A model generated the notes under the pieces. That model was not told the DNA's origin and searched no databases. It saw only the letters and a list, made by a program, of their open reading frames with translations. Of a DNA stretch of 64,000 bases, positions 5,177-17,163 are shown one piece after another. A program made the position numbers and the translations under genes. Source of the stretch: an uncultured Methanosarcinaceae archaeon (GTDB lineage Archaea > Halobacteriota > Methanosarcinia > Methanosarcinales > Methanosarcinaceae); the NCBI GenBank assembly GCA_963847185.1, contig CAWJYV010000008.1:64001-128000 (forward strand). The letters run 5' to 3'. Each line of letters starts with the position of its first letter. The first letter of the stretch is position 1.

Positions 5177-6217
5177 TTAATCTAAAATGGGTGTTCCGTA
5201 GGTAAAGTCATCAAGTTCCAGGACTTTTTTCCAGAGCTCTTTGCATTCGCAGTCTACTCTGCTGAGGTCAGCTGGGTTCTGGGTAAGTGAAAAAGTCCTC
5301 AGGGAATCTGCAACTTCTGAGCTGCATTTTTTACAGTTGCGAGGGCCACGTTTTGAACCTGCTCCGACAGGATCAGACATGAGTGGGAGGTCTGGATGGG
5401 CTGCTTTTGCTTTCTGCAGGATATCCACTATGCTCCAGAGCCACGGGGGTCGGTACTGGCCTTTTTCCCAGAAAGCCTCAACAAGGGTTCCTTTCTGGAC
5501 ATTGCAAAGATTGATGGAGATTGTGTCAGCATAAGGAGCTGCGTCATCTATTGAACGCAAGATGTCTTCTAAGGCCTGGCGTTCGGAAAGGAAGAGAGGT
5601 TTTAACATCAGGTAAGCTTTTACGGTTGCACCGTGTTTTTTTGCAATTTCTGCTGCGCGGACAAAGTCTTTGAAGGTGAAACCTTTGTTTATTGAGTCTT
5701 TTCGGATTCTGTCCGAACTTGTTTCCAGTCCGAAAGCCAGCTCAAAAGGCTTGTACCCCAGAGTTTTGAGGCATTCCTGCACATTTTCTTCGGTTACATA
5801 GTTGGGACGAGTTTCCACAAGTACTTTAGTAACTCTTGAATCGTCTGCGAGAGTTTTAAGGATCGTATCTCTGGCTTCCCCGGGAACTTCCTGTTCGTCA
5901 AGGAAACTACCTGAGGTAAAGATTTTGACCATAAACTCAGGGAATTTCTCGGCTTTCTTCATTGCTTTTGCAAGCTGGGCTTTATAATCTTCCAGGGTCG
6001 GAGGTTCACTTGCGCAGTCATAGACGTAACCGCACATTGTACAACCCCCAGCTTTCCCCCAGCGGCAGCCCGCGCTCTTGAAGATTATAGTGAGGGTCTT
6101 TATTTGAATCCCGTCTACAAGGTCTACTCCTGTCCAGCTTGCCGCAGGTTCGTCTGTAGGAGAGGGCTTTACTTTAATCCGCTGCCGGATTTCTATTACT
6201 GCTTTATTCAGGGTCAT
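5177..6217 (-). CDS. Archaeosine biosynthesis radical SAM protein RaSEA (TIGR01210-type)
   Basis: GCRWGKAGGCTMC, KIFTSGSFLD, ETRP, GLET and YRPPWLWS motifs. Confidence 0.88.
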   Translation of the reverse strand: MTLNKAVIEIRQRIKVKPSPTDEPAASWTGVDLVDGIQIKTLTIIFKSAGCRWGKAGGCTMCGYVYDCASEPPTLEDYKAQLAKAMKKAEKFPEFMVKIFTSGSFLDEQEVPGEARDTILKTLADDSRVTKVLVETRPNYVTEENVQECLKTLGYKPFELAFGLETSSDRIRKDSINKGFTFKDFVRAAEIAKKHGATVKAYLMLKPLFLSERQALEDILRSIDDAAPYADTISINLCNVQKGTLVEAFWEKGQYRPPWLWSIVDILQKAKAAHPDLPLMSDPVGAGSKRGPRNCKKCSSEVADSLRTFSLTQNPADLSRVDCECKELWKKVLELDDFTYGTPILD

Positions 6218-8241: not shown

Positions 8242-8916
8242 TTACCATATTTTTGGAATTAATCTGTTAGTTCTTTTCATGTAATCACCGTATCCTTCAA
8301 CTTCTCGAATTAGGACTTCTTCTTCAAACTTTAGCCTGGTAAGAAAGAGGATTATTAGCAGTACTGATATGCCCAGGGAGCAGTAAGCATTGAGAGTAAG
8401 AGGAATGCCAAGGGTCTGAATTATGTTTCCTGCATAAGCCGGATGTCTTATGAATTTATAAGGACCGCTTTCCACAAGTTTATGGTCGTCTTTAATCTCT
8501 ATATGGACAGAGAAGTATTTTCCCAGTGTCCACATACCCCAGGCGCGTAGGCCTGTACCTAATACTATCAGAGCTGCTCCTGTGATTGTAATGATAAGAT
8601 TATATCTCGGATAGAAGCTGTATTCAAGAAGAGGAAAAGTTAAGAGGAAACTCCAGGAAAATAAAAGCGAATAACGGGTCCATTTTTTTGACTGGCCTCC
8701 TTTAATTTCCGAACCTCTGTACGCAATTCTTTCCATAACCAGATAAAAAAACAGGGCTCCTGCATAAATATAAACTGGAAAATGGTTCAAAGAATCCCAT
8801 CTTTCGTCCAGAACTCTACAGGTTTCAGAAGCCAGCAAAATCATGAGGATACCTATAGCCCAATTTATCCATTTTTCAGTTCTGTTTCCTTCTATTCGGG
8901 TTTCAGACTTTTCCAT
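8242..8916 (-). CDS. Isoprenylcysteine carboxyl methyltransferase (ICMT/Ste14) family membrane protein
   Basis: Multiple TM segments; HKLVESGPYKFIRHPAYAG and EEEVL...YGDYMKRT.RLIPKIW. Confidence 0.88.
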   Translation of the reverse strand: MEKSETRIEGNRTEKWINWAIGILMILLASETCRVLDERWDSLNHFPVYIYAGALFFYLVMERIAYRGSEIKGGQSKKWTRYSLLFSWSFLLTFPLLEYSFYPRYNLIITITGAALIVLGTGLRAWGMWTLGKYFSVHIEIKDDHKLVESGPYKFIRHPAYAGNIIQTLGIPLTLNAYCSLGISVLLIILFLTRLKFEEEVLIREVEGYGDYMKRTNRLIPKIW

Positions 8917-9832: not shown

Positions 9833-10228
9833 TTAAGTTGCCCTGCCATTTTGACAGAAGTGATTATTCGGATTTGCATCCTTGAGATCATACTTTTCCC
9901 ATACTTCACATGAACCACAAATACATTGTCTGTCAAAATTGAGATCCTGGCAGGTAGCTTTTCCTGTTGAGCAATACATTCCTGCAAAATCCTCTTGATC
10001 CGGAACTTCTCCTTCAGGCATGCTTTCCATTGCTTTTTTTGAACTCTTAACTTTATCCCGTGTACAATTACTTTCAGCCTGAACCGGACACTGTTGGCAT
10101 CTACATCTGTTAATATTTACAGATATATAAGGAACTACAAAATCCGTGCCTCTTTCAAAAGTTATATCTCTGTCTCTGGGCGTTATAGAGCCCCTCTCTT
10201 CGGTTGATGTGTTTCTTCCTTTATTCAT
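9833..10228 (-). CDS. Cys-rich protein, DUF2769-like
   Basis: CRCQQCP, YCSTGKA and CICGSCEV...FC patterns. Confidence 0.7.
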   Translation of the reverse strand: MNKGRNTSTEERGSITPRDRDITFERGTDFVVPYISVNINRCRCQQCPVQAESNCTRDKVKSSKKAMESMPEGEVPDQEDFAGMYCSTGKATCQDLNFDRQCICGSCEVWEKYDLKDANPNNHFCQNGRAT

Positions 10229-10521: not shown

Positions 10522-10872
10522 TCAATTACTGGTAACAGGATATCCGGCGTTTACCCAGGCACTGATGCCACCAGCCATATTATATACCTGTGAATATCCT
10601 GCATTTATAAGGATTTTACTTGCTGCTGTACTTCTATGCCCTGTTCTGCAGTAAATCAGTATCTTTTTATTTTGAGGAACTTCATTTATCCTTGTTTCTA
10701 AAAGCATGTTTGAACTCAGGTTTGATCCAAAAGCATTATTTACGGGAATTAGAGTTGCCCCTTTGACATGCGACGAGTTAAATTCAGCAGGTGTTCGGAC
10801 GTCAAGTACGAACACATCATCGCCTTCTTCAATCATTTTCCTGGCTTCTTCTACACTTACATTCTTAAACAT
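10522..10872 (-). CDS. Rhodanese-like domain protein (N-terminal signal possibly lost by frameshift)
   Basis: LDVRTPAEFNSSHVKGA, YCRTGHRS active-site loop and MAGGISAW. Confidence 0.88.
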   Translation of the reverse strand: MFKNVSVEEARKMIEEGDDVFVLDVRTPAEFNSSHVKGATLIPVNNAFGSNLSSNMLLETRINEVPQNKKILIYCRTGHRSTAASKILINAGYSQVYNMAGGISAWVNAGYPVTSN

Positions 10873-11313
10873 TGCCGGGTCCCTTTCGTTTTCAGTTGTA
10901 ATGATTAATACAGTTGCTATAAGTTGAAAATGAGAGTGCCAAAAACATAAAATATTTCTTTAATCAAGTTCTTCCCTTATTAAAGGCATCTGGAGTTAGT
11001 TTGATGCATACTTTGTAAGTACGCTATCGTTTGTATATGATGTGCTTCTTGAATATAATTCTGATTACTTTTGTTACTTGCAAAAATTATTGGTCTCCTT
11101 TACATCGTGTCTACATGTTTAGGCCAGCTTTTATTTATATAATATCTGCCAGGTAGGTAAAAATCTCCAGATTCAATAATTTCTGGAAGAATATGCTGAT
11201 GAGAATCGGTGATGGAAAACTGAATCCCGGCTGAAAAGAGAGTCAAAAACCAGAAAATTTAAGCATTTTTGAATTTTCTTCACCAGATTTTTAATCATAA
11301 AAATGTGAATAGA

Positions 11314-11439
11314 CTCATTCGTCGGTCAACTTTGACGGTTGTCGGTCAGTATCAAGAAAAAACTTCTAATGCATTTTTTGATTTTGATAGGGCTTATTCT
11401 TACTGACGTTGCAATCCAGCTCAAGATTGGACGAATGAG
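11314..11439. other. Long imperfect hairpin downstream of secreted peptide A (candidate structured RNA)
   Basis: CTCATTCGTC (11314-23) pairs with GACGAATGAG (11430-39); GTCAGTA (11345-51) pairs with TACTGAC (11401-07); additional nested short stems. Confidence 0.55.
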
Positions 11440-11494
11440 ATGTTGTAGGTGTTTTAAATTTAGTCTAATTTATGTTCGACTTGTCAACGGTTTA

Positions 11495-11860
11495 TTAGAA
11501 TATATCGTCAAAACCGTCAAAAAAGCCAGCACCACCTATACCAAAAGGACTGTTATAGAGAGCTGCAATCAGAACGTCATTACAGCTTGGACCACAGCCG
11601 CAACCCCAGCCACAACCGTTACCCCAGCCGCCGATACCCAAGTCATCGCCGATACCCAAGTCATCGCCGATACCCAAGTCATCGCCGATACCCAAGTCAT
11701 CGCCGATACCCAAGTCGTCGTCTGCAACTTCTTCTGCAACTTCTTCTACCACTTCGGTTTTACATGCACTCGCTGACACAGCTGTCAATGAAATCACAAA
11801 AAAGATTGCCATCAAAATAGCCAGTGCTTTTCTTATTCTGTCAAATGTTTGTTTCCCCAT
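11495..11860 (-). CDS. Secreted Gly/Asp/Cys-rich repeat peptide A
   Basis: GGAGG RBS; signal peptide ending ASA; (DDLGIG)x5; tail SCNDVLIAALYNSPFGIGGAGFFDGFDDIF shared with paralog B. Confidence 0.8.
   Translation of the reverse strand: MGKQTFDRIRKALAILMAIFFVISLTAVSASACKTEVVEEVAEEVADDDLGIGDDLGIGDDLGIGDDLGIGDDLGIGGWGNGCGWGCGCGPSCNDVLIAALYNSPFGIGGAGFFDGFDDIF
11630..11719. repeat. 18-bp coding tandem repeat x5 (DDLGIG)
   Basis: GCCGATACCCAAGTCATC repeated five times, one mismatch in the last copy. Confidence 0.95.
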
Positions 11861-12660
11861 TTATCTATCCCTCCGACATTTTGCTCAATTTAATGCTGTT
11901 TAAGGTCGTTGGTACTTTTATCCGCTCTCCGTCGGCAGATTAATTCTTTTTACTAATGCTATTTTACTAATTAGTCATCCAGATCCATTTCTGGAAAAAT
12001 ATAACATTAGTAAATTCTCTCTGTTTATATGCTAAGAAAAATCTGCCAATGAAAAAGTTTCAAATTTTCCCATCAAATGATATTTATCCATAGAATATAA
12101 TGTATATAGAAATATAGATTAGTAATTCTTAATAAGTAAAAATTAATATTATTCTATAAAACGAATAATTATATGCCAAAAATTAATATTTGATTTTTAA
12201 TTGCCTCGTATATTCCTCAAACTACAACTAAAATCAGTAAAATTCCATAATTTAATATATTTAACGGAAATAATTCTCATTTTAATATGGTTATTCTAAT
12301 TATCTAAAAGCCAGACGAAAACCACAGGTATATTGAGTCATAAAATTATAGCATCAATTGTCATCAATTTCATTCAGGTTCTTCAGTTATTTCTTTTATA
12401 TTACTCATTAAATCAATAACCTCAATTAAGTAACAGCAGCCTGTACTTATATATTCCTTCAATAAAAAAGACAAGGGGCTGATGATAGGCATAAGCGCAT
12501 TTGGAATATTTGCAAGAAACTACAATTCTAAAAATTAAAACCGGATAATCTAATATCCGGTTTACTGGAGGGAAATTGTTTTCATCAGGATTCTATAAAT
12601 CATTGTCAATTCTCAATATGACAACGCCAGCTTTATTTCAGCTTCTGAATCAGTTCATTA

Positions 12661-12820
12661 AAAATGTAAAATAAGATTCATTCGCCTGTCCACATTGGTA
12701 GTTCCGGCAAGCACCAGAAAAACCTCTCAATACATTTTTGATTTGACAAGGTTAAGAAATTACTGTTTCTACAATCCAACTTGGGACTGGACGAATGAGG
12801 AATTCTCGATTGTACATTTT
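12661..12820. other. Homologous long hairpin downstream of secreted peptide B
   Basis: Nested stems AAAATGTA/TACATTTT, TCATTCG/CGAATGA, GTCC/GGAC, GTAG/CTAC and AACCT/AGGTT; aligns with 11300-11460. Confidence 0.5.
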
Positions 12821-12862
12821 AGAGTTAGTTTAGTATTAATGGTTCAACTTGTCAACGGTTTA

Positions 12863-13213
12863 TTAGAATATATCGTCAAAACCGTCAAAAAAGCCAGCAC
12901 CACCGATACCAAAAGGACTGTTTTGGAGAGCTGCAATCAGAACGTCATTACAGCTAGTTCCACAGCCGCCACAGCCGCCACAGCCGCCGAACCACCCATC
13001 ATTCCAGTCACAGCCACCGCAGCCGCCACAGCCGCCACCACAGCCGCCGAACCACCCATCATTCCAGTCACAGCCGCCACAGCCGCCACCGCAGCCGCCC
13101 CAACCTCTGTTCCAGCCACCTGCGCTTGCTGATGCAGCTGTCAATGACACTACAAAAAAGACTGCCATCAAAATAGCCAACGTCTTTTTTACTTTGTTAA
13201 ATTGTATTTTCAT
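12863..13213 (-). CDS. Secreted Gly/Cys/Trp-rich repeat peptide B
   Basis: GGAG RBS, ATG at 13213; signal peptide ending ASA; GGC repeats and DWNDGWF x2; tail SCNDVLIAALQNSPFGIGGAGFFDGFDDIF. Confidence 0.8.
   Translation of the reverse strand: MKIQFNKVKKTLAILMAVFFVVSLTAASASAGGWNRGWGGCGGGCGGCDWNDGWFGGCGGGCGGCGGCDWNDGWFGGCGGCGGCGTSCNDVLIAALQNSPFGIGGAGFFDGFDDIF
12961..13099. repeat. Coding repeats in peptide B (9-bp GGC units within a 60-bp duplication)
   Basis: CCACAGCCGCCGAACCACCCATCATTCCAGTCACAGCC occurs twice, 60 bp apart. Confidence 0.9.
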
Positions 13214-13748
13214 CTGTCCACACTCCAAAAATTTTATTAAAAAAGATACAATTTTAAGGCTTTTGATTTTTCAATTTACTCCCATCGTCAAATGCACTGT
13301 CTATATAGTATTTTACCAATTAATCATCCCAGTCTCTTTAGTAAGGTCATATTTCAATATTTATTTATCCCGGGGTTGATCATTGGTTAAATAACTCCTT
13401 TATTCAGTACAAATGGTATTGTGTCGATAGGCGTAATTTCAAATTGTATCATTGGAGTATTATTAATCAAAGAATATAATAGATAGCGAAATATAAATAA
13501 GGAATCCATATTAAATCAATCATTATGTTATTTAGACAAAAATAAATAAAATTAGTAAAATAATACCATTTATCAAAAATCTATCTCCTCAAAATATATA
13601 GTTATTATCTGGATATCGATGGTCTTATCTTTCTAATCAAAAGTAATAGTTATTTAGTCTAAAGTGAATACAATTATCTAAATATATTCTTTCAAACTAA
13701 AATTAGATAAAAAATCACATAGCCAGGTTATGTATTGATATTTTATAT

Positions 13749-14682
13749 ACTATGTTTAAGTAATAATACTGATCATATTTCTTATTAATTTCTAATTTTG
13801 GCGAGAAAAAGACTCAAGATAATTGCTCAAAAGTTAGAGGGAAACTACATTGATTATGGCTGAGATCCTGAAATCTCATCCTGTTAAGTTTTAGTAGATT
13901 TATGCTATTAATAATCTATGTAAAGAATATGTTAAACTCGTGGATTGATTTCAAACTACGGAAATAAGACTGAACTTTGAAATTGACATTGTTCAATATA
14001 GTTTTTAAGAAAAGAACTACAACAGACACGGATCAACACTAATCTATACAGTCTAGATCCATTTGTATTTTCTTTATTTTGTTTTATTGAGGATATGGAA
14101 TCATTCAATAGAAAAGAAAAGTAAAGGGCTGTAAACTGAATTACAAGCTTGCAGCCTTCAATTTAAGCCGAAATCAATAACTTACAATCGTTAAATGTCT
14201 TATCCATGCTTTACAACTATGTTTAAGTAATAATACTGATCATATTTCTTATTAATTTCTAATTTTGGCGAGAAAAAGACTCAAGATAATTGCTCAAAAG
14301 TTAGAGGGAAACTACATTGATTATGGCTGAGATCCTGAAATCTCATCCTGTTAAGTTTTAGTAGATTTATGCTATTAATAATCTATGTAAAGAATATGTT
14401 AAACTCGTGGATTGATTTCAAACTACGGAAATAAGACTGAACTTTGAAATTGACATTGTTCAATATAGTTTTTAAGAAAAGAACTACAACAGACACGGAT
14501 CAACACTAATCTATACAGTCTAGATCCATTTGTATTTTCTTTATTTTGTTTTATTGAGGATATGGAATCATTCAATAGAAAAGAAAAGTAAAGGGCTGTA
14601 AACTGAATTACAAGCTTGCAGCCTTCAATTTAAGCCGAAATCAATAACTTACAATCGTTAAATGTCTTATCCATGCTTTACA
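13749..14682. repeat. 467-bp direct tandem duplication (13749-14215 and 14216-14682), non-coding
   Basis: ACTATGTTTAAGTAATAATACTGATC...TATCCATGCTTTACA is repeated head-to-tail; no mismatch seen by eye. Confidence 0.95.
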
Positions 14683-14704
14683 TGAACACTTTTACGATCA
14701 GTTA

Positions 14705-15874
14705 TTACATATTTTCAGTCATGTTACTTATTTTCCCATTTATTCCGGCCATATTACCCATATTTTCAATTTGAATGGTTTTTTCAGTAATGTTACATGT
14801 GAAAGTTTTAGTCATAACTTGAGTTGTATCATCCATTTTTTGAATTATAAGTATCTTTTTGGTTATATTCTCCATTTCACTCATTTTTTCATCCATTTCA
14901 GCCGTATTATATATTTTTCCATCCATTCCAAACATATTCTCCATTTCTCCAGTCTCTTCACTCATTTTTCCGAGTACAGTCATGTCTTCACTTATTTTGA
15001 CCATTTCCATACTTTCGTCCATTCTGGTGCTGTCCATATCACGGAATATAAGCATAGTTCCAGTCATATCACATGTCATTGGACCAGTCATATTACTCAT
15101 GTTTCCGGCCGTTCCAGTCATATCACTCATATTTCCTGCCGTTTCAGTCATATTAGTCATGTTTCCGGCCATTCCGTGCATCTTACACATATTTCCGATC
15201 ATTTCGGTCATATTACCAATATTTTTGATTACAACCACTTTTCTAGTCATATCACCTGTTACGGTTGCAGTCATATTTCCAGTCATGAGCACACCCATAT
15301 TATCCATATTTTCGCTCATTCCGGTCATATTATTCATATTTCCAGTCATGTTTGCCATGTTTCCGGTCATATTATCCATGTTTCCGGTCATGTCAAGTGT
15401 CACGGTTGCAGTCATATTCCCAGCCATGATTATGGTCACATTGCCCATTTTTTCGGTTAGGTTACCTATATTTCCGTCAATTCCAGGCATTTTCATATGT
15501 TCATCCATTTCGGGCATATTATTCATTTTTCCGACCATAATCACTTTTCCGGGGATATTGTCCATTTTTCCGATAATAACCACTTTTCCGGGCATATTAT
15601 CTAAGCTTTTGATTATAGCTATCTTTCCGGTTACAGTCCCTGTTTTTGGCGTGTTACTCATATTTCCGGTCATATTTTCCATTTTTCCGGCAACGTTCAT
15701 ATTTCCGATTACAGCTGCGTTTCCAGTCATGTTGCATGTAATGGTTTTAGCTATATTTTCTGTCACTATTACATTCATGCTATCCATGTCAGCCGTGTTA
15801 GTCTGTGCTTGCACCGATACAACAGATAAGATCAGGCATATCGCTAACAGAGGAACTATTAGTTTCATTTTCAT
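14705..15874 (-). CDS. Secreted methionine-rich low-complexity protein
   Basis: G-rich RBS; signal peptide MKMKLIVPLLAICLILSVVSVQA; about 65 Met in 389 aa (hand count); (G/D/N)NMTG repeats. Confidence 0.8.
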   Translation of the reverse strand: MKMKLIVPLLAICLILSVVSVQAQTNTADMDSMNVIVTENIAKTITCNMTGNAAVIGNMNVAGKMENMTGNMSNTPKTGTVTGKIAIIKSLDNMPGKVVIIGKMDNIPGKVIMVGKMNNMPEMDEHMKMPGIDGNIGNLTEKMGNVTIIMAGNMTATVTLDMTGNMDNMTGNMANMTGNMNNMTGMSENMDNMGVLMTGNMTATVTGDMTRKVVVIKNIGNMTEMIGNMCKMHGMAGNMTNMTETAGNMSDMTGTAGNMSNMTGPMTCDMTGTMLIFRDMDSTRMDESMEMVKISEDMTVLGKMSEETGEMENMFGMDGKIYNTAEMDEKMSEMENITKKILIIQKMDDTTQVMTKTFTCNITEKTIQIENMGNMAGINGKISNMTENM

Positions 15875-16143
15875 TCTTTACCCCCCGTATTTGAGTTCGA
15901 CTATCGAGTCGATTATATATTAATTAAATAAAAAAATAATTTAATATAAAACAATAATAATAAATAGCTGTCTTATAAATAATTAATCTTTGTTAACTAT
16001 GAAGACTAGTCCAGATTTAAAGAGCATGAAGCGTTTTAAAAGTAACTATCAGTTATAGATTTATTCTATTTGATAACAGATGTTGAGTAATATAATCTAA
16101 AAATCGCAGTAATTATTTTATTTGAAAAGTTCTATTTTAATGC

Positions 16144-16475
16144 TTACCTTGAAACATCTGTAATCCATCTCTCTGCTTCTACATAAACATCGTCTGAAAC
16201 TTCTTTCAAGCTATGACAGTGTTTTGCGTATTTTGATCCTTTTAGGTTCGTTTGCAAGATTATGCATATCCTAAGTTGCTTGGAGGTAAGGTTTCGTCTG
16301 CCCTGCAATGGATTGAAATTACTGATATACTTCCAGGAAGGAAAGAGACCGGACTCTATTCCATAGTTTTGAGTGGAGAGTGTAACTGCGGTCTTTAAAC
16401 TTTCTTCATTGAACACCGTCTGAACAACAAATGTACCTCCAAAAGAGTGCCCTATAGACCAAATTTCTTTTTATA
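16144..16475 (-). pseudogene. Alpha/beta-hydrolase remnant
   Basis: In frame upstream of the tracked ORF: KEIWSIGHSFGGTFVVQTVFNEESLKTAVTLSTQ (GxSxG nucleophile elbow); no N-terminus or start; decays downstream. Confidence 0.65.
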
Positions 16476-16755
16476 TTGGGAATATTAGTTTCAGTTTTTC
16501 TACCCCGTTTAGTTTCCTTTATGTCCTGCATAATTTAATCTAAAACTTCTGCATATAGCAGGAGAAATACAATTTATTTATGTCCAAAACCAGATATTAA
16601 GGCTGTATTACCCAGTTACCGTTGGGATATGCCTAGGACAATAATTGAATTAATAAAATTAGAAAATGAGTCAATAAATACAGTTAGAAAGCATAACTTT
16701 AATTAAAAATATGGAGAATAACCCCGACTTTAGTGACAATAATTGGAGTTAGTAT

Positions 16756-17163
16756 ATGGAAGATATTATACAGTTTTTTAAGAAAGATCACTTTGCTACG
16801 AGCTCAGGAATAGAACTGCTAAATGTATCTCCTGGATATGCAAAAACCAGGATGAAAATTGAAGAAAGACACCTTAACGCTTTAAACGCAGTGCAGGGAG
16901 GTGCAATTTTCACCCTTGCAGACTTCGCTTTTGCCGCAGCTTCAAATGCACATGGAAATGCTGCAGTTGGCATCAATGCAAGCATTTCGTTTGTAAAGGC
17001 TGCAATAAAAGGTACTCTCATAGCCGAAGCAAACGAGACATCAATAAATCCTAAAATTGCCACCTATACCGTAAATATCACTGATGACGAAGGAGATCTT
17101 GTGGCAATATTTCAGGGGATGGTCTACAGGAAAAAATTTACAATTGATTTTTCTGATGTTTAA
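16756..17163 (+). CDS. PaaI-family hotdog-fold thioesterase
   Basis: HLNALNAVQGGAIFTLADFAFAAASN motif; GGAG RBS. Confidence 0.9.
   Translation: MEDIIQFFKKDHFATSSGIELLNVSPGYAKTRMKIEERHLNALNAVQGGAIFTLADFAFAAASNAHGNAAVGINASISFVKAAIKGTLIAEANETSINPKIATYTVNITDDEGDLVAIFQGMVYRKKFTIDFSDV

Follow-up and report, generated by a model that had tools for sequence, protein, structure and literature searches.

Fast-evolving secreted repeat proteins of an uncharacterised family at a conserved Methanosarcina locus

Several described systems resemble in part the products of two genes, A and B, that lie on the minus strand of a 64,000-nt stretch of DNA from an uncultured Methanosarcinaceae archaeon (GenBank assembly GCA_963847185.1, contig CAWJYV010000008.1, positions 64,001 to 128,000; hereafter, the window). 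The genes of conotoxins and of amphibian antimicrobial peptides follow the logic of a conserved signal peptide with hypervariable cargo attached. A and B have in common with conotoxins and amphibian skin peptides a nearly invariant signal peptide, unrelated and fast-evolving mature parts, and tandem genes, but they come from another domain of life, and their mature parts are anionic and repeat-based, with no evidence of toxicity. The plant glycine-rich proteins of Pfam family PF07172, a class with a Cys-rich C-terminal end, are built much as A and B are: a Gly-rich body of repeats follows the signal peptide, and the short part at the C terminus contains Cys. This family is the top Pfam match of A, but at 20.4 bits the match falls below the cut-off of 30, B has no match, and the host is an archaeon; the similarity is probably compositional rather than homologous.

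Metallothioneins and phytochelatin-like peptides are comparable to A and B in being rich in Cys and Gly, of low complexity, and predicted to be unfolded without their ligand, a likeness that makes soft-metal binding plausible. Metallothioneins are cytosolic, however, whereas A and B are exported and contain only 5.6% and 12.9% Cys along with many aromatic and acidic residues, and no metallothionein family model in Pfam or NCBIfam matches either protein. Archaeosortase/exosortase signals (PGF-CTERM, PEF-CTERM) resemble the C-terminal tail of A and B as short, conserved hydrophobic segments at the C terminus of Sec-exported methanogen proteins; A and B differ in lacking the signature motif, a full transmembrane span, and the trailing basic residues, and in ending with the acidic DGFDDIF. 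The precursors of heterocycloanthracins and other thiazole/oxazole-modified microcins (TOMMs) are similarly small and carry comparable Cys-Gly runs (GCGCG, GGC). A Cys/Ser/Thr-rich repetitive core is present in A and B as well, but they lack a leader family and an adjacent cyclodehydratase or dehydrogenase.

Set beside these systems, A and B belong, as its A-type and B-type members, to an uncharacterised family of secreted repeat proteins found only in Methanosarcina. The family is genus-wide, fast-evolving, and encoded at a conserved locus. The first-pass annotation of the window had proposed a candidate new archaeal peptide or fibre system; A and B do not stand alone but are one branch of this wider family, annotated as hypothetical where it is annotated at all.

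A secreted repeat-protein family of Methanosarcina

Two co-oriented small open reading frames (ORFs) with signals ending in ASA and stop codons 1368 bp apart had been noted in the first-pass annotation, and all of these features are present on the minus strand (stop codons at 11495 and 12863; Table 1). Both signal peptides, which we called by eye and, for A, from a helix predicted by AlphaFold2 over residues 3–32, consist of a K/R-rich start, 17–18 hydrophobic residues, and the ASA end. In A, the signal peptide is followed by CKTEVVEEVAEEVAD, five DDLGIG repeats, GWGNGCGWGCGCG, and a 30-residue tail; in B, it is followed by GGW, by GGC runs with two DWNDGWF units, and by the tail. Four 18-nt units, 97–100% identical, plus flanks encode the DDLGIG repeats (repeat family D6), and this degree of identity points to recent slippage. 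The two tails, SCNDVLIAAL(Y/Q)NSPFGIGGAGFFDGFDDIF, are identical at 29 of 30 residues, in agreement with the earlier count, and form a C-terminal module in which a single Cys is followed by a short hydrophobic helix (DVLIAAL), then by a Gly-rich turn, and finally by an end that is both acidic and aromatic (GFFDGFDDIF). The earlier picture is borne out in that both small proteins are real and exported, their variable cores have expanded by repeats, and they have a C-terminal module in common.

The claim that the two cores are unrelated did not survive comparison within the genus. Below, G000 is the window's own genome (4.04 Mb), and G267, G269, and G255 are three other genomes of the genus. The orthologue of A in G267 carries DDLGIG units together with GWNDGW and GCGNGCGCGCG. 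Because this one protein mixes both repeat types, the cores of A and B, repeat-expanded as originally described, are variants of a single D/G/W/C repeat theme.

The start of gene B could also be placed at a TTG codon at position 13228, which would give a protein of 121 residues; the ATG start is supported because the B-type orthologues begin with M(E/K)IQF. Plus-strand ORFs of 145 residues (11339–11776 and 12695–13132) were rejected as real genes, since the genus-conserved signal peptide sits only in the minus-strand frame. The repeats of this family leave several frames open, inviting miscalled genes: the database proteins P0002 and P0005 come from family genes whose repeat core was translated in a shifted frame (GCGCG becoming AAVVAAV), and an unshifted P0002-like gene is present in G269 (L084:2553–2912).

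Mature A (89 residues) has a net charge of −19 and contains 5 Cys (5.6%), 25% Gly, and 9% aromatic residues, and mature B (85 residues) has a net charge of −7 with 11 Cys (12.9%), 39% Gly, and 15% aromatic residues. An AlphaFold2 model of A, computed from an 11-row alignment, has a mean predicted local distance difference test (pLDDT) score of 49.5. Apart from the signal helix, residues 33–95 score below 50 and lack confident structure, and the model places a helix at residues 91–103 (PSCNDVLIAALYN) and a weak helix at 114–120. We take the model to mean that A is intrinsically disordered and contains a single short hydrophobic helix.

Searches of Pfam and NCBIfam with A, B, and nine other family members returned nothing at or above the cut-off of any model, and the tail module matches no described family. 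A look-alike search of the ESM Atlas with A gave no usable match. A word-indexed search of 5.8 billion proteins matched four, and an exhaustive profile search of 1.84 billion representatives gave 181 matches at E-values up to 0.001, among which P0001 alone scored below 1e-30. What nearly all of the 181 have in common is the signal peptide alone (MGKQTFDRIKKTLAILLAVFFVVSLTAASASA-like); the mature parts are of low complexity and quite different. The family-type signal peptide has a K/R-rich start and ends in LAILxAVFFVxSLTAxSASA. A and B sit within a genus-restricted superfamily of at least 181 clusters in which a near-invariant signal peptide precedes low-complexity cargo of unrelated kinds (GHGW, KWDxEK, NGY, DDY, Thr/Ser-rich, and others). 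The profile matches 55 of 58 Methanosarcina genomes and none of 118 genomes from 15 sister genera. Scanning G000 with the signal-peptide profile yielded about 18 genes, with A and B as the best and third-best matches. We regard the locus as a clear archaeal case of a near-invariant signal peptide joined to hypervariable cargo.

Exact look-ups identified two family members as "hypothetical protein" entries of Methanosarcina horonobensis and M. barkeri (strain MS), and 8 of 10 family sequences, A and B included, were absent from the protein collection. Because so many of its genes are missing from such collections, the family is easily overlooked in proteomics. Full-text searches, within the part of the literature open to them, found no description of the family, although the supplements of the small-protein studies on M. 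mazei may list members. The accessible parts of PMC4158269, on archaeal "dark matter" genes, and of PMC11456600, on the small proteome of M. mazei, contain nothing on it.

We surveyed the locus across the genus with the neighboring rhodanese gene as anchor, which had a match at E-values up to 1e-20 in 50 of 59 genomes. Taking the best rhodanese match of each genome at E-values up to 2e-46, we collected 39 loci, from Methanosarcina genomes other than G000, with 7 kb of upstream sequence and located family genes in them with a signal-peptide profile built from the 181 profile-search matches. The survey found 47 family genes in 31 of the 39 syntenic loci, arranged as a tandem array of one to three genes upstream of the rhodanese gene. 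All 49 family genes, A and B included, share the orientation of the rhodanese gene. The order of the locus is a gene for a Met-rich protein, in some loci an ion-channel gene (21 of 40) and a gene for a ferric-reductase-like membrane protein (14 of 40), the family genes, the rhodanese gene, and a gene for a DUF2769 protein. Positions within the array are maintained across species, the A-type gene always lying next to the rhodanese gene and the B-type gene second. The orthologue of A in G267 adjoins the orthologous rhodanese gene, and in a closed genome (L042/L083, treated as one) three co-oriented family genes precede it.

The same protein plan is seen throughout the family: behind the signal peptide come short charged repeats, usually with Cys among their residues (KDKCDW, DRFDKF, DDLGIG, GCGCG), and then an aromatic/Gly-rich C-terminal end such as FSFDILWMLFGDIFD or FFGxxFFG. 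Of 47 family proteins, 37 terminate in C, W, or F. Directly after the SA of the cleavage site, 20 of the 47 have Cys, as A does, and 19 have Gly, as B does. A lipobox requires Cys at +1 after a small-residue pair at −1/−2 at the end of the signal peptide, and the ASA-Cys junction of A is, by this rule, a possible lipobox.

Origin of the near-identical tails

In the first-pass annotation, the tail, identical at 29 of 30 residues, was read as a processing, sorting, or polymerisation signal. This identity is no evidence of a recognition signal under strong selection; our comparisons point to a recent gene-conversion tract. By the Nei–Gojobori method, the tails of A and B differ at 1 of 19.3 synonymous and 2 of 70.7 non-synonymous sites, and their signal peptides at 7.5 of 20.2 synonymous and 10.5 of 63.8 non-synonymous sites. 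The identity of the DNA includes synonymous sites and runs about 25 nt beyond the stop codon (20 of 22 positions), with 128 of 192 positions identical in the rest of the 3′ untranslated region (UTR). Tail identity between A and B is 29 of 30 residues in G000 but only 8 of 30 in the orthologous pairs of two other species, represented by G269 and G255 (8 of 30 in each). The signal peptide of B is closer to that of the G269 B-type protein (25 of 32 residues) than to that of A (20 of 32); given this and the positional orthology, the duplication that produced A and B is older than the species. The single codon by which the tails differ also varies: an allele of B in assembled RNA contigs, from two metatranscriptome runs of one study, has TAT (Tyr) at 12923–12925, as in A. 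Judged from these sequence patterns, the near-identity of the tails is the product of recent gene conversion, that is, of concerted evolution, over a tract of about 130–145 nt. Read in this way, the locus is a clear archaeal case of concerted evolution of a short C-terminal module.

Conservation that stems from recent gene conversion alone was among the findings that the first-pass annotation had itself named as refuting its reading. For the near-identity of the tails this refutation holds; for a looser motif it does not. Between A and its orthologue in G267, the tail shows three synonymous and no non-synonymous changes in 27 codons, plus one codon deletion. A looser version of the pattern (a Cys, a hydrophobic helix, a G-rich turn, FD, and an aromatic end) recurs in other subfamilies, some of them at other loci, with the helix in variants such as C-I-T-A-A-L and I-T-A-V-R-A. 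By comparison of these sequences, the tail is still under constraint.

The stricter tail is narrowly distributed. A and B are its only carriers in the whole 4.04-Mb genome, and among 284 genomes of the order, the 45-residue C-terminal end was found only in G000 and G267, which belong to the same genus. Weaker matches at the level of the order, in G054, G187, and G008, were judged to be chance, since inspection revealed no related ORF. The tail pattern gave 594 matches in metagenome contigs, none of which was confirmed, and a second metagenome scan, with P0003, gave 16 loci that matched mainly in the signal peptide. Among longer proteins (213–2000 residues), there were 13 candidates for the tail and none scored, which is weak evidence against its fusion to larger proteins.

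Possible functions of the family

We favor, as on balance the most probable explanation, a Methanosarcina-specific tandem array of Sec-exported small proteins that are associated with the cell envelope and have a metal or thiol role. The structural and evolutionary part of this explanation we hold with high confidence; the metal or thiol function of A and B is a tentative assignment that may well be wrong. Sec export and cleavage would yield mature A and B (85–89 residues, anionic, and predicted to be disordered), which would remain on or close to the cell surface. For A, a lipidated Cys at +1 may serve as the tether, and either protein may be held by its hydrophobic tail. Their carboxylates and reduced thiols would most likely bind or buffer metal cations or metal sulfides outside the cell, and they would act alongside their co-oriented neighbors, the Met-rich protein, the rhodanese, and the DUF2769 protein.

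The suggestion of metal binding draws on the thiol- and carboxylate-rich, anionic, disordered character of A and B and on the company they keep: a Met-rich protein with cupredoxin-bearing relatives, the ferric-reductase-like gene, the rhodanese, and the Cys-rich DUF2769 protein. The Met-rich protein itself has no match in Pfam or NCBIfam. Among its 41 homologues, precomputed Pfam annotation assigns a C-terminal plastocyanin/cupredoxin domain to four and DUF4430 to three, and our own scan confirmed two of each. From its sequence and these relatives, we consider it a candidate extracellular Cu(I)-binding protein. Methanosarcina species are key methane producers with a high demand for Ni, Co, Fe, and Zn, metals that are hard to obtain in their sulfidic settings, where Cu is toxic. 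Genus-specific, fast-evolving exported proteins rich in Cys, Asp, and Gly, encoded at a conserved locus beside a Met-rich protein with cupredoxin-fused relatives, are a concrete, testable candidate for metal handling or for surface building.

A more ambitious, and to us doubtful, extension is that Methanosarcina has a locus of its own, hitherto unrecognised, for handling metals outside the cell, and that the array is its thiol/carboxylate arm. Surface-tethered or released peptides would then capture or buffer Cu, Ni, Co, Zn, Fe, or their sulfides, in partnership with the Met-rich protein, the rhodanese, and, where present, the ferric-reductase-like membrane protein. The aromatic, hydrophobic tail would keep the peptides at the envelope, and fast repeat turnover together with gene conversion would tune their capacity and specificity.

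Several observations weigh against the explanation that we favor. No experiment or database annotation links any family member to metals. A has 5 Cys in 89 residues, far under the Cys density of metallothioneins, and aromatic residues are abundant in A and B, unlike in classical metal-thiolate proteins. Ion-channel and ferric-reductase-like genes of the type found in the cluster were not detected in G000 by tblastn, and the signal-peptide profile found no family gene in 8 of the 39 loci (L087, L093, L103, L105, L108, L117, L120, and L121, some of them short contigs). The synteny comes from kin genomes of one genus, so that the presence of the Met-rich gene in 24 of 40 loci does not amount to 24 independent observations. 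AlphaFold2 confidence is low throughout A, which leaves the C-terminal helix only a hint. As for transcription, the RNA contigs that cover B are assembled, from libraries that can contain DNA, and show neither strand nor level, and A is represented in the RNA runs by a single 48-nt repeat piece that is uninformative on expression.

A purely structural or adhesive role is nearly as likely as a metal function, though taken by itself we consider it rather unlikely. The disordered cores and the aromatic/Gly tails of the FFG type would self-associate into a film, fibre, or glue at the surface of the cell envelope or of minerals, with any metal binding incidental. Low-complexity repeats, conserved aromatic/Gly C-terminal ends, and the frequency of C, W, or F as final residue (37 of 47) are what such proteins would show, as are tandem paralogues and the fast turnover of repeats, evident from the RNA-contig allele of B with its 12-nt insertion and 69-nt skip. 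The subthreshold match to PF07172 (20.4 versus 30 bits) fits as a similarity in composition and, being under the cut-off, is probably nothing else. There is no evidence of assembly, and the very small size and very acidic character of A and B (net charges of −19 and −7) disfavor self-association without counter-ions.

Competition or signaling is a less probable role again. A and B would be secreted effectors of the archaeocin kind or precursors that release the C-terminal tail as a signal. A common, genus-restricted signal peptide in at least 181 clusters with unrelated mature parts would suit this well, and so would tandem arrays, rapid divergence, and repeat-number polymorphism. The mature proteins, however, are strongly anionic, unlike most membrane-active peptides, and disulfide-dependent multi-Cys folds are unlikely in the reducing habitat of a strict anaerobe. 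Moreover, the 40 loci contain no immunity, transporter, or receptor gene with a conserved place beside the array.

It is quite improbable that the tail is a C-terminal sorting or anchoring signal, whether cleaved off in exchange for a link to a lipid or the cell wall, as in archaeosortase substrates, or modified at a C-terminal Cys or aromatic motif. The short hydrophobic C-terminal segment on exported proteins is suggestive, and in a P0001-type orthologue the last 27 residues are uncharged. In addition, 19 of 47 family proteins end in Cys, some in CC, CxC, or motifs resembling C-a-a-X (...CCCIF, ...KCC, ...CWC), and a gene of the isoprenylcysteine carboxyl methyltransferase (ICMT)-like family lies nearby (8242–8916) and in 12 of 40 loci. 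Any link between the Cys-ended proteins and the ICMT-family gene is pure speculation; the gene's match is far under the equivalog cut-off (74 versus 160 bits), and nothing but synteny among kin genomes makes the connection. At E-values up to 10, A and B match none of the CTERM models in NCBIfam, whether PGF, PEF, or another type, and both proteins end in the acidic DDIF, with neither a basic cluster nor a terminal Cys.

The proposal that A and B are precursors of ribosomally synthesized and post-translationally modified peptides (RiPPs), in which the tail would be a follower recognition sequence and the Cys-Gly core would become thiazoles or other cross-links, has in its favor the resemblance of the Cys-Gly repeats to heterocycloanthracin-type cores and is very improbable, because the N terminus is a Sec-type signal without a leader-family match in NCBIfam or Pfam, the tails differ between orthologues more strongly than a shared recognition sequence would tolerate, the only YcaO gene of G000 lies on contig C7 directly beside TfuA (a pairing known from thioamidation of methyl-coenzyme M reductase, McrA), the nearest radical S-adenosylmethionine gene (5177–6217) encodes RaSEA, which acts in archaeosine formation (385 bits, where the cut-off is 212), and the 40 loci have no conserved enzyme gene adjoining the array, none of the seven labelled gene clusters being a maturase. 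The first-pass annotation, which had invoked this logic, was itself correct that no modifying enzyme is encoded beside A and B.

Features of the locus, transcripts, and flanking regions

Gene B and its flanks are covered by assembled metatranscriptome contigs from three studies (Table 1). The allele of B in contigs X1 and X2 carries its 12-nt insertion and 69-nt skip inside the repeat core, and repeat number therefore varies between strains. The ends of contigs at 13368 and 13369 lie about 155 nt upstream of the ATG of B and about 20 nt downstream of the A/T-rich TTATTTAA, a weak hint that transcription of B starts near these positions.

Table 1 Coordinates of features in the window and of orthologues of genes A and B.
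Feature	Position	Strand	Remarks
Gene A (A-type family member)	11495..11860	minus	121 residues
Signal peptide of A	11765..11860	minus	residues 1–32, MGKQTFDRIRK...SASA; next residue Cys
18-nt tandem units coding for (DDLGIG)n in A	11629..11720	minus	repeat family D6
Tail of A, 30 residues	11498..11587	minus	
Homogenised tract, copy 1	11474..11618		tail codons and about 25 nt past the stop codon; repeat family D8, 145 nt, 92%
Conserved 3′ UTR of A	11290..11494	minus	10-nt inverted repeat CTCATTCGTC ... GACGAATGAG
Gene B (B-type family member)	12863..13213	minus	116 residues from ATG
Signal peptide of B	13121..13213	minus	residues 1–31; next residue Gly
Tail of B, 30 residues	12866..12955	minus	
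Homogenised tract, copy 2	12842..12986		repeat family D8
Probable 5′ UTR of B	13214..13369	minus	contigs of two studies end at 13368 and 13369
TATA-like TTATTTAA	13394–13387	minus	A/T-rich, read by eye
3′ UTR of B	12573..12862	minus	RNA contigs end at 12573, 12594, and 12615
RNA contig X1 over B	12615–13368		696-nt contig
RNA contig X2 over B	12594–13271		
RNA contig X4 over B	12573–12808 and 13117–13369		
RNA contig X5 over B	13070–13428		
Single-domain rhodanese gene	10522..10872	minus	conserved anchor downstream of the array
DUF2769 Cys-rich protein gene	9833..10228	minus	downstream of the rhodanese gene in 21 of 40 loci
Secreted Met-rich repeat protein gene	14705..15874	minus	389 residues; MxxM/MxxxM runs, NMTGNM; upstream of the array in 24 of 40 loci
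A orthologue, G267	L020:262–618		
A orthologue, G269	L084:2553–2912		
A orthologue, G255	L083:5804–6271		
B orthologue, G269	L084:3887–4231		
B orthologue, G255	L083:4177–4584		

Part of the 3′ UTR (11300–11440 for A and 12660–12800 for B) is conserved among A, B, and the orthologues in G267 and G255. The two arms of the 10-nt inverted repeat in this region, CTCATTCGTC and GACGAATGAG, enclose about 110 nt. Consensus folding of the 3′ UTR with RNAalifold gave only a 6-bp hairpin and no compensatory change, so that an RNA structure of the inverted repeat is unproven, and an Rfam scan of positions 10800–16800 at E-values up to 1 gave no matches.

Upstream of B, an element of about 100 nt (13436–13535), 220–320 nt from the start of the gene, is 74–76% identical to other sequences of G000. 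Four of these matches (C1:198720, C1:242403, C8:1012051, and C8:1028429) lie 190–1100 nt from other genes with the same signal peptide, and near a fifth (C7:392244) no such gene was identified. From its sequence and placement, this stretch may have a shared regulatory role. The interval that separates gene B from the Met-rich gene holds, at 13749–14682, a perfect tandem duplication of a 467-bp non-coding unit in two copies that are 100% identical, each holding an identical 50-residue ORF; the genome has no further copy.

G000 also encodes a second Gly/Cys/Phe-rich family, with ORFs of 86 and 71 residues (C1:35405–35665 and C4:45340–45555). These begin with MFGFGGFG, contain 40–48% Gly and GGCGG runs, and, being without a signal peptide, are apparently cytoplasmic.

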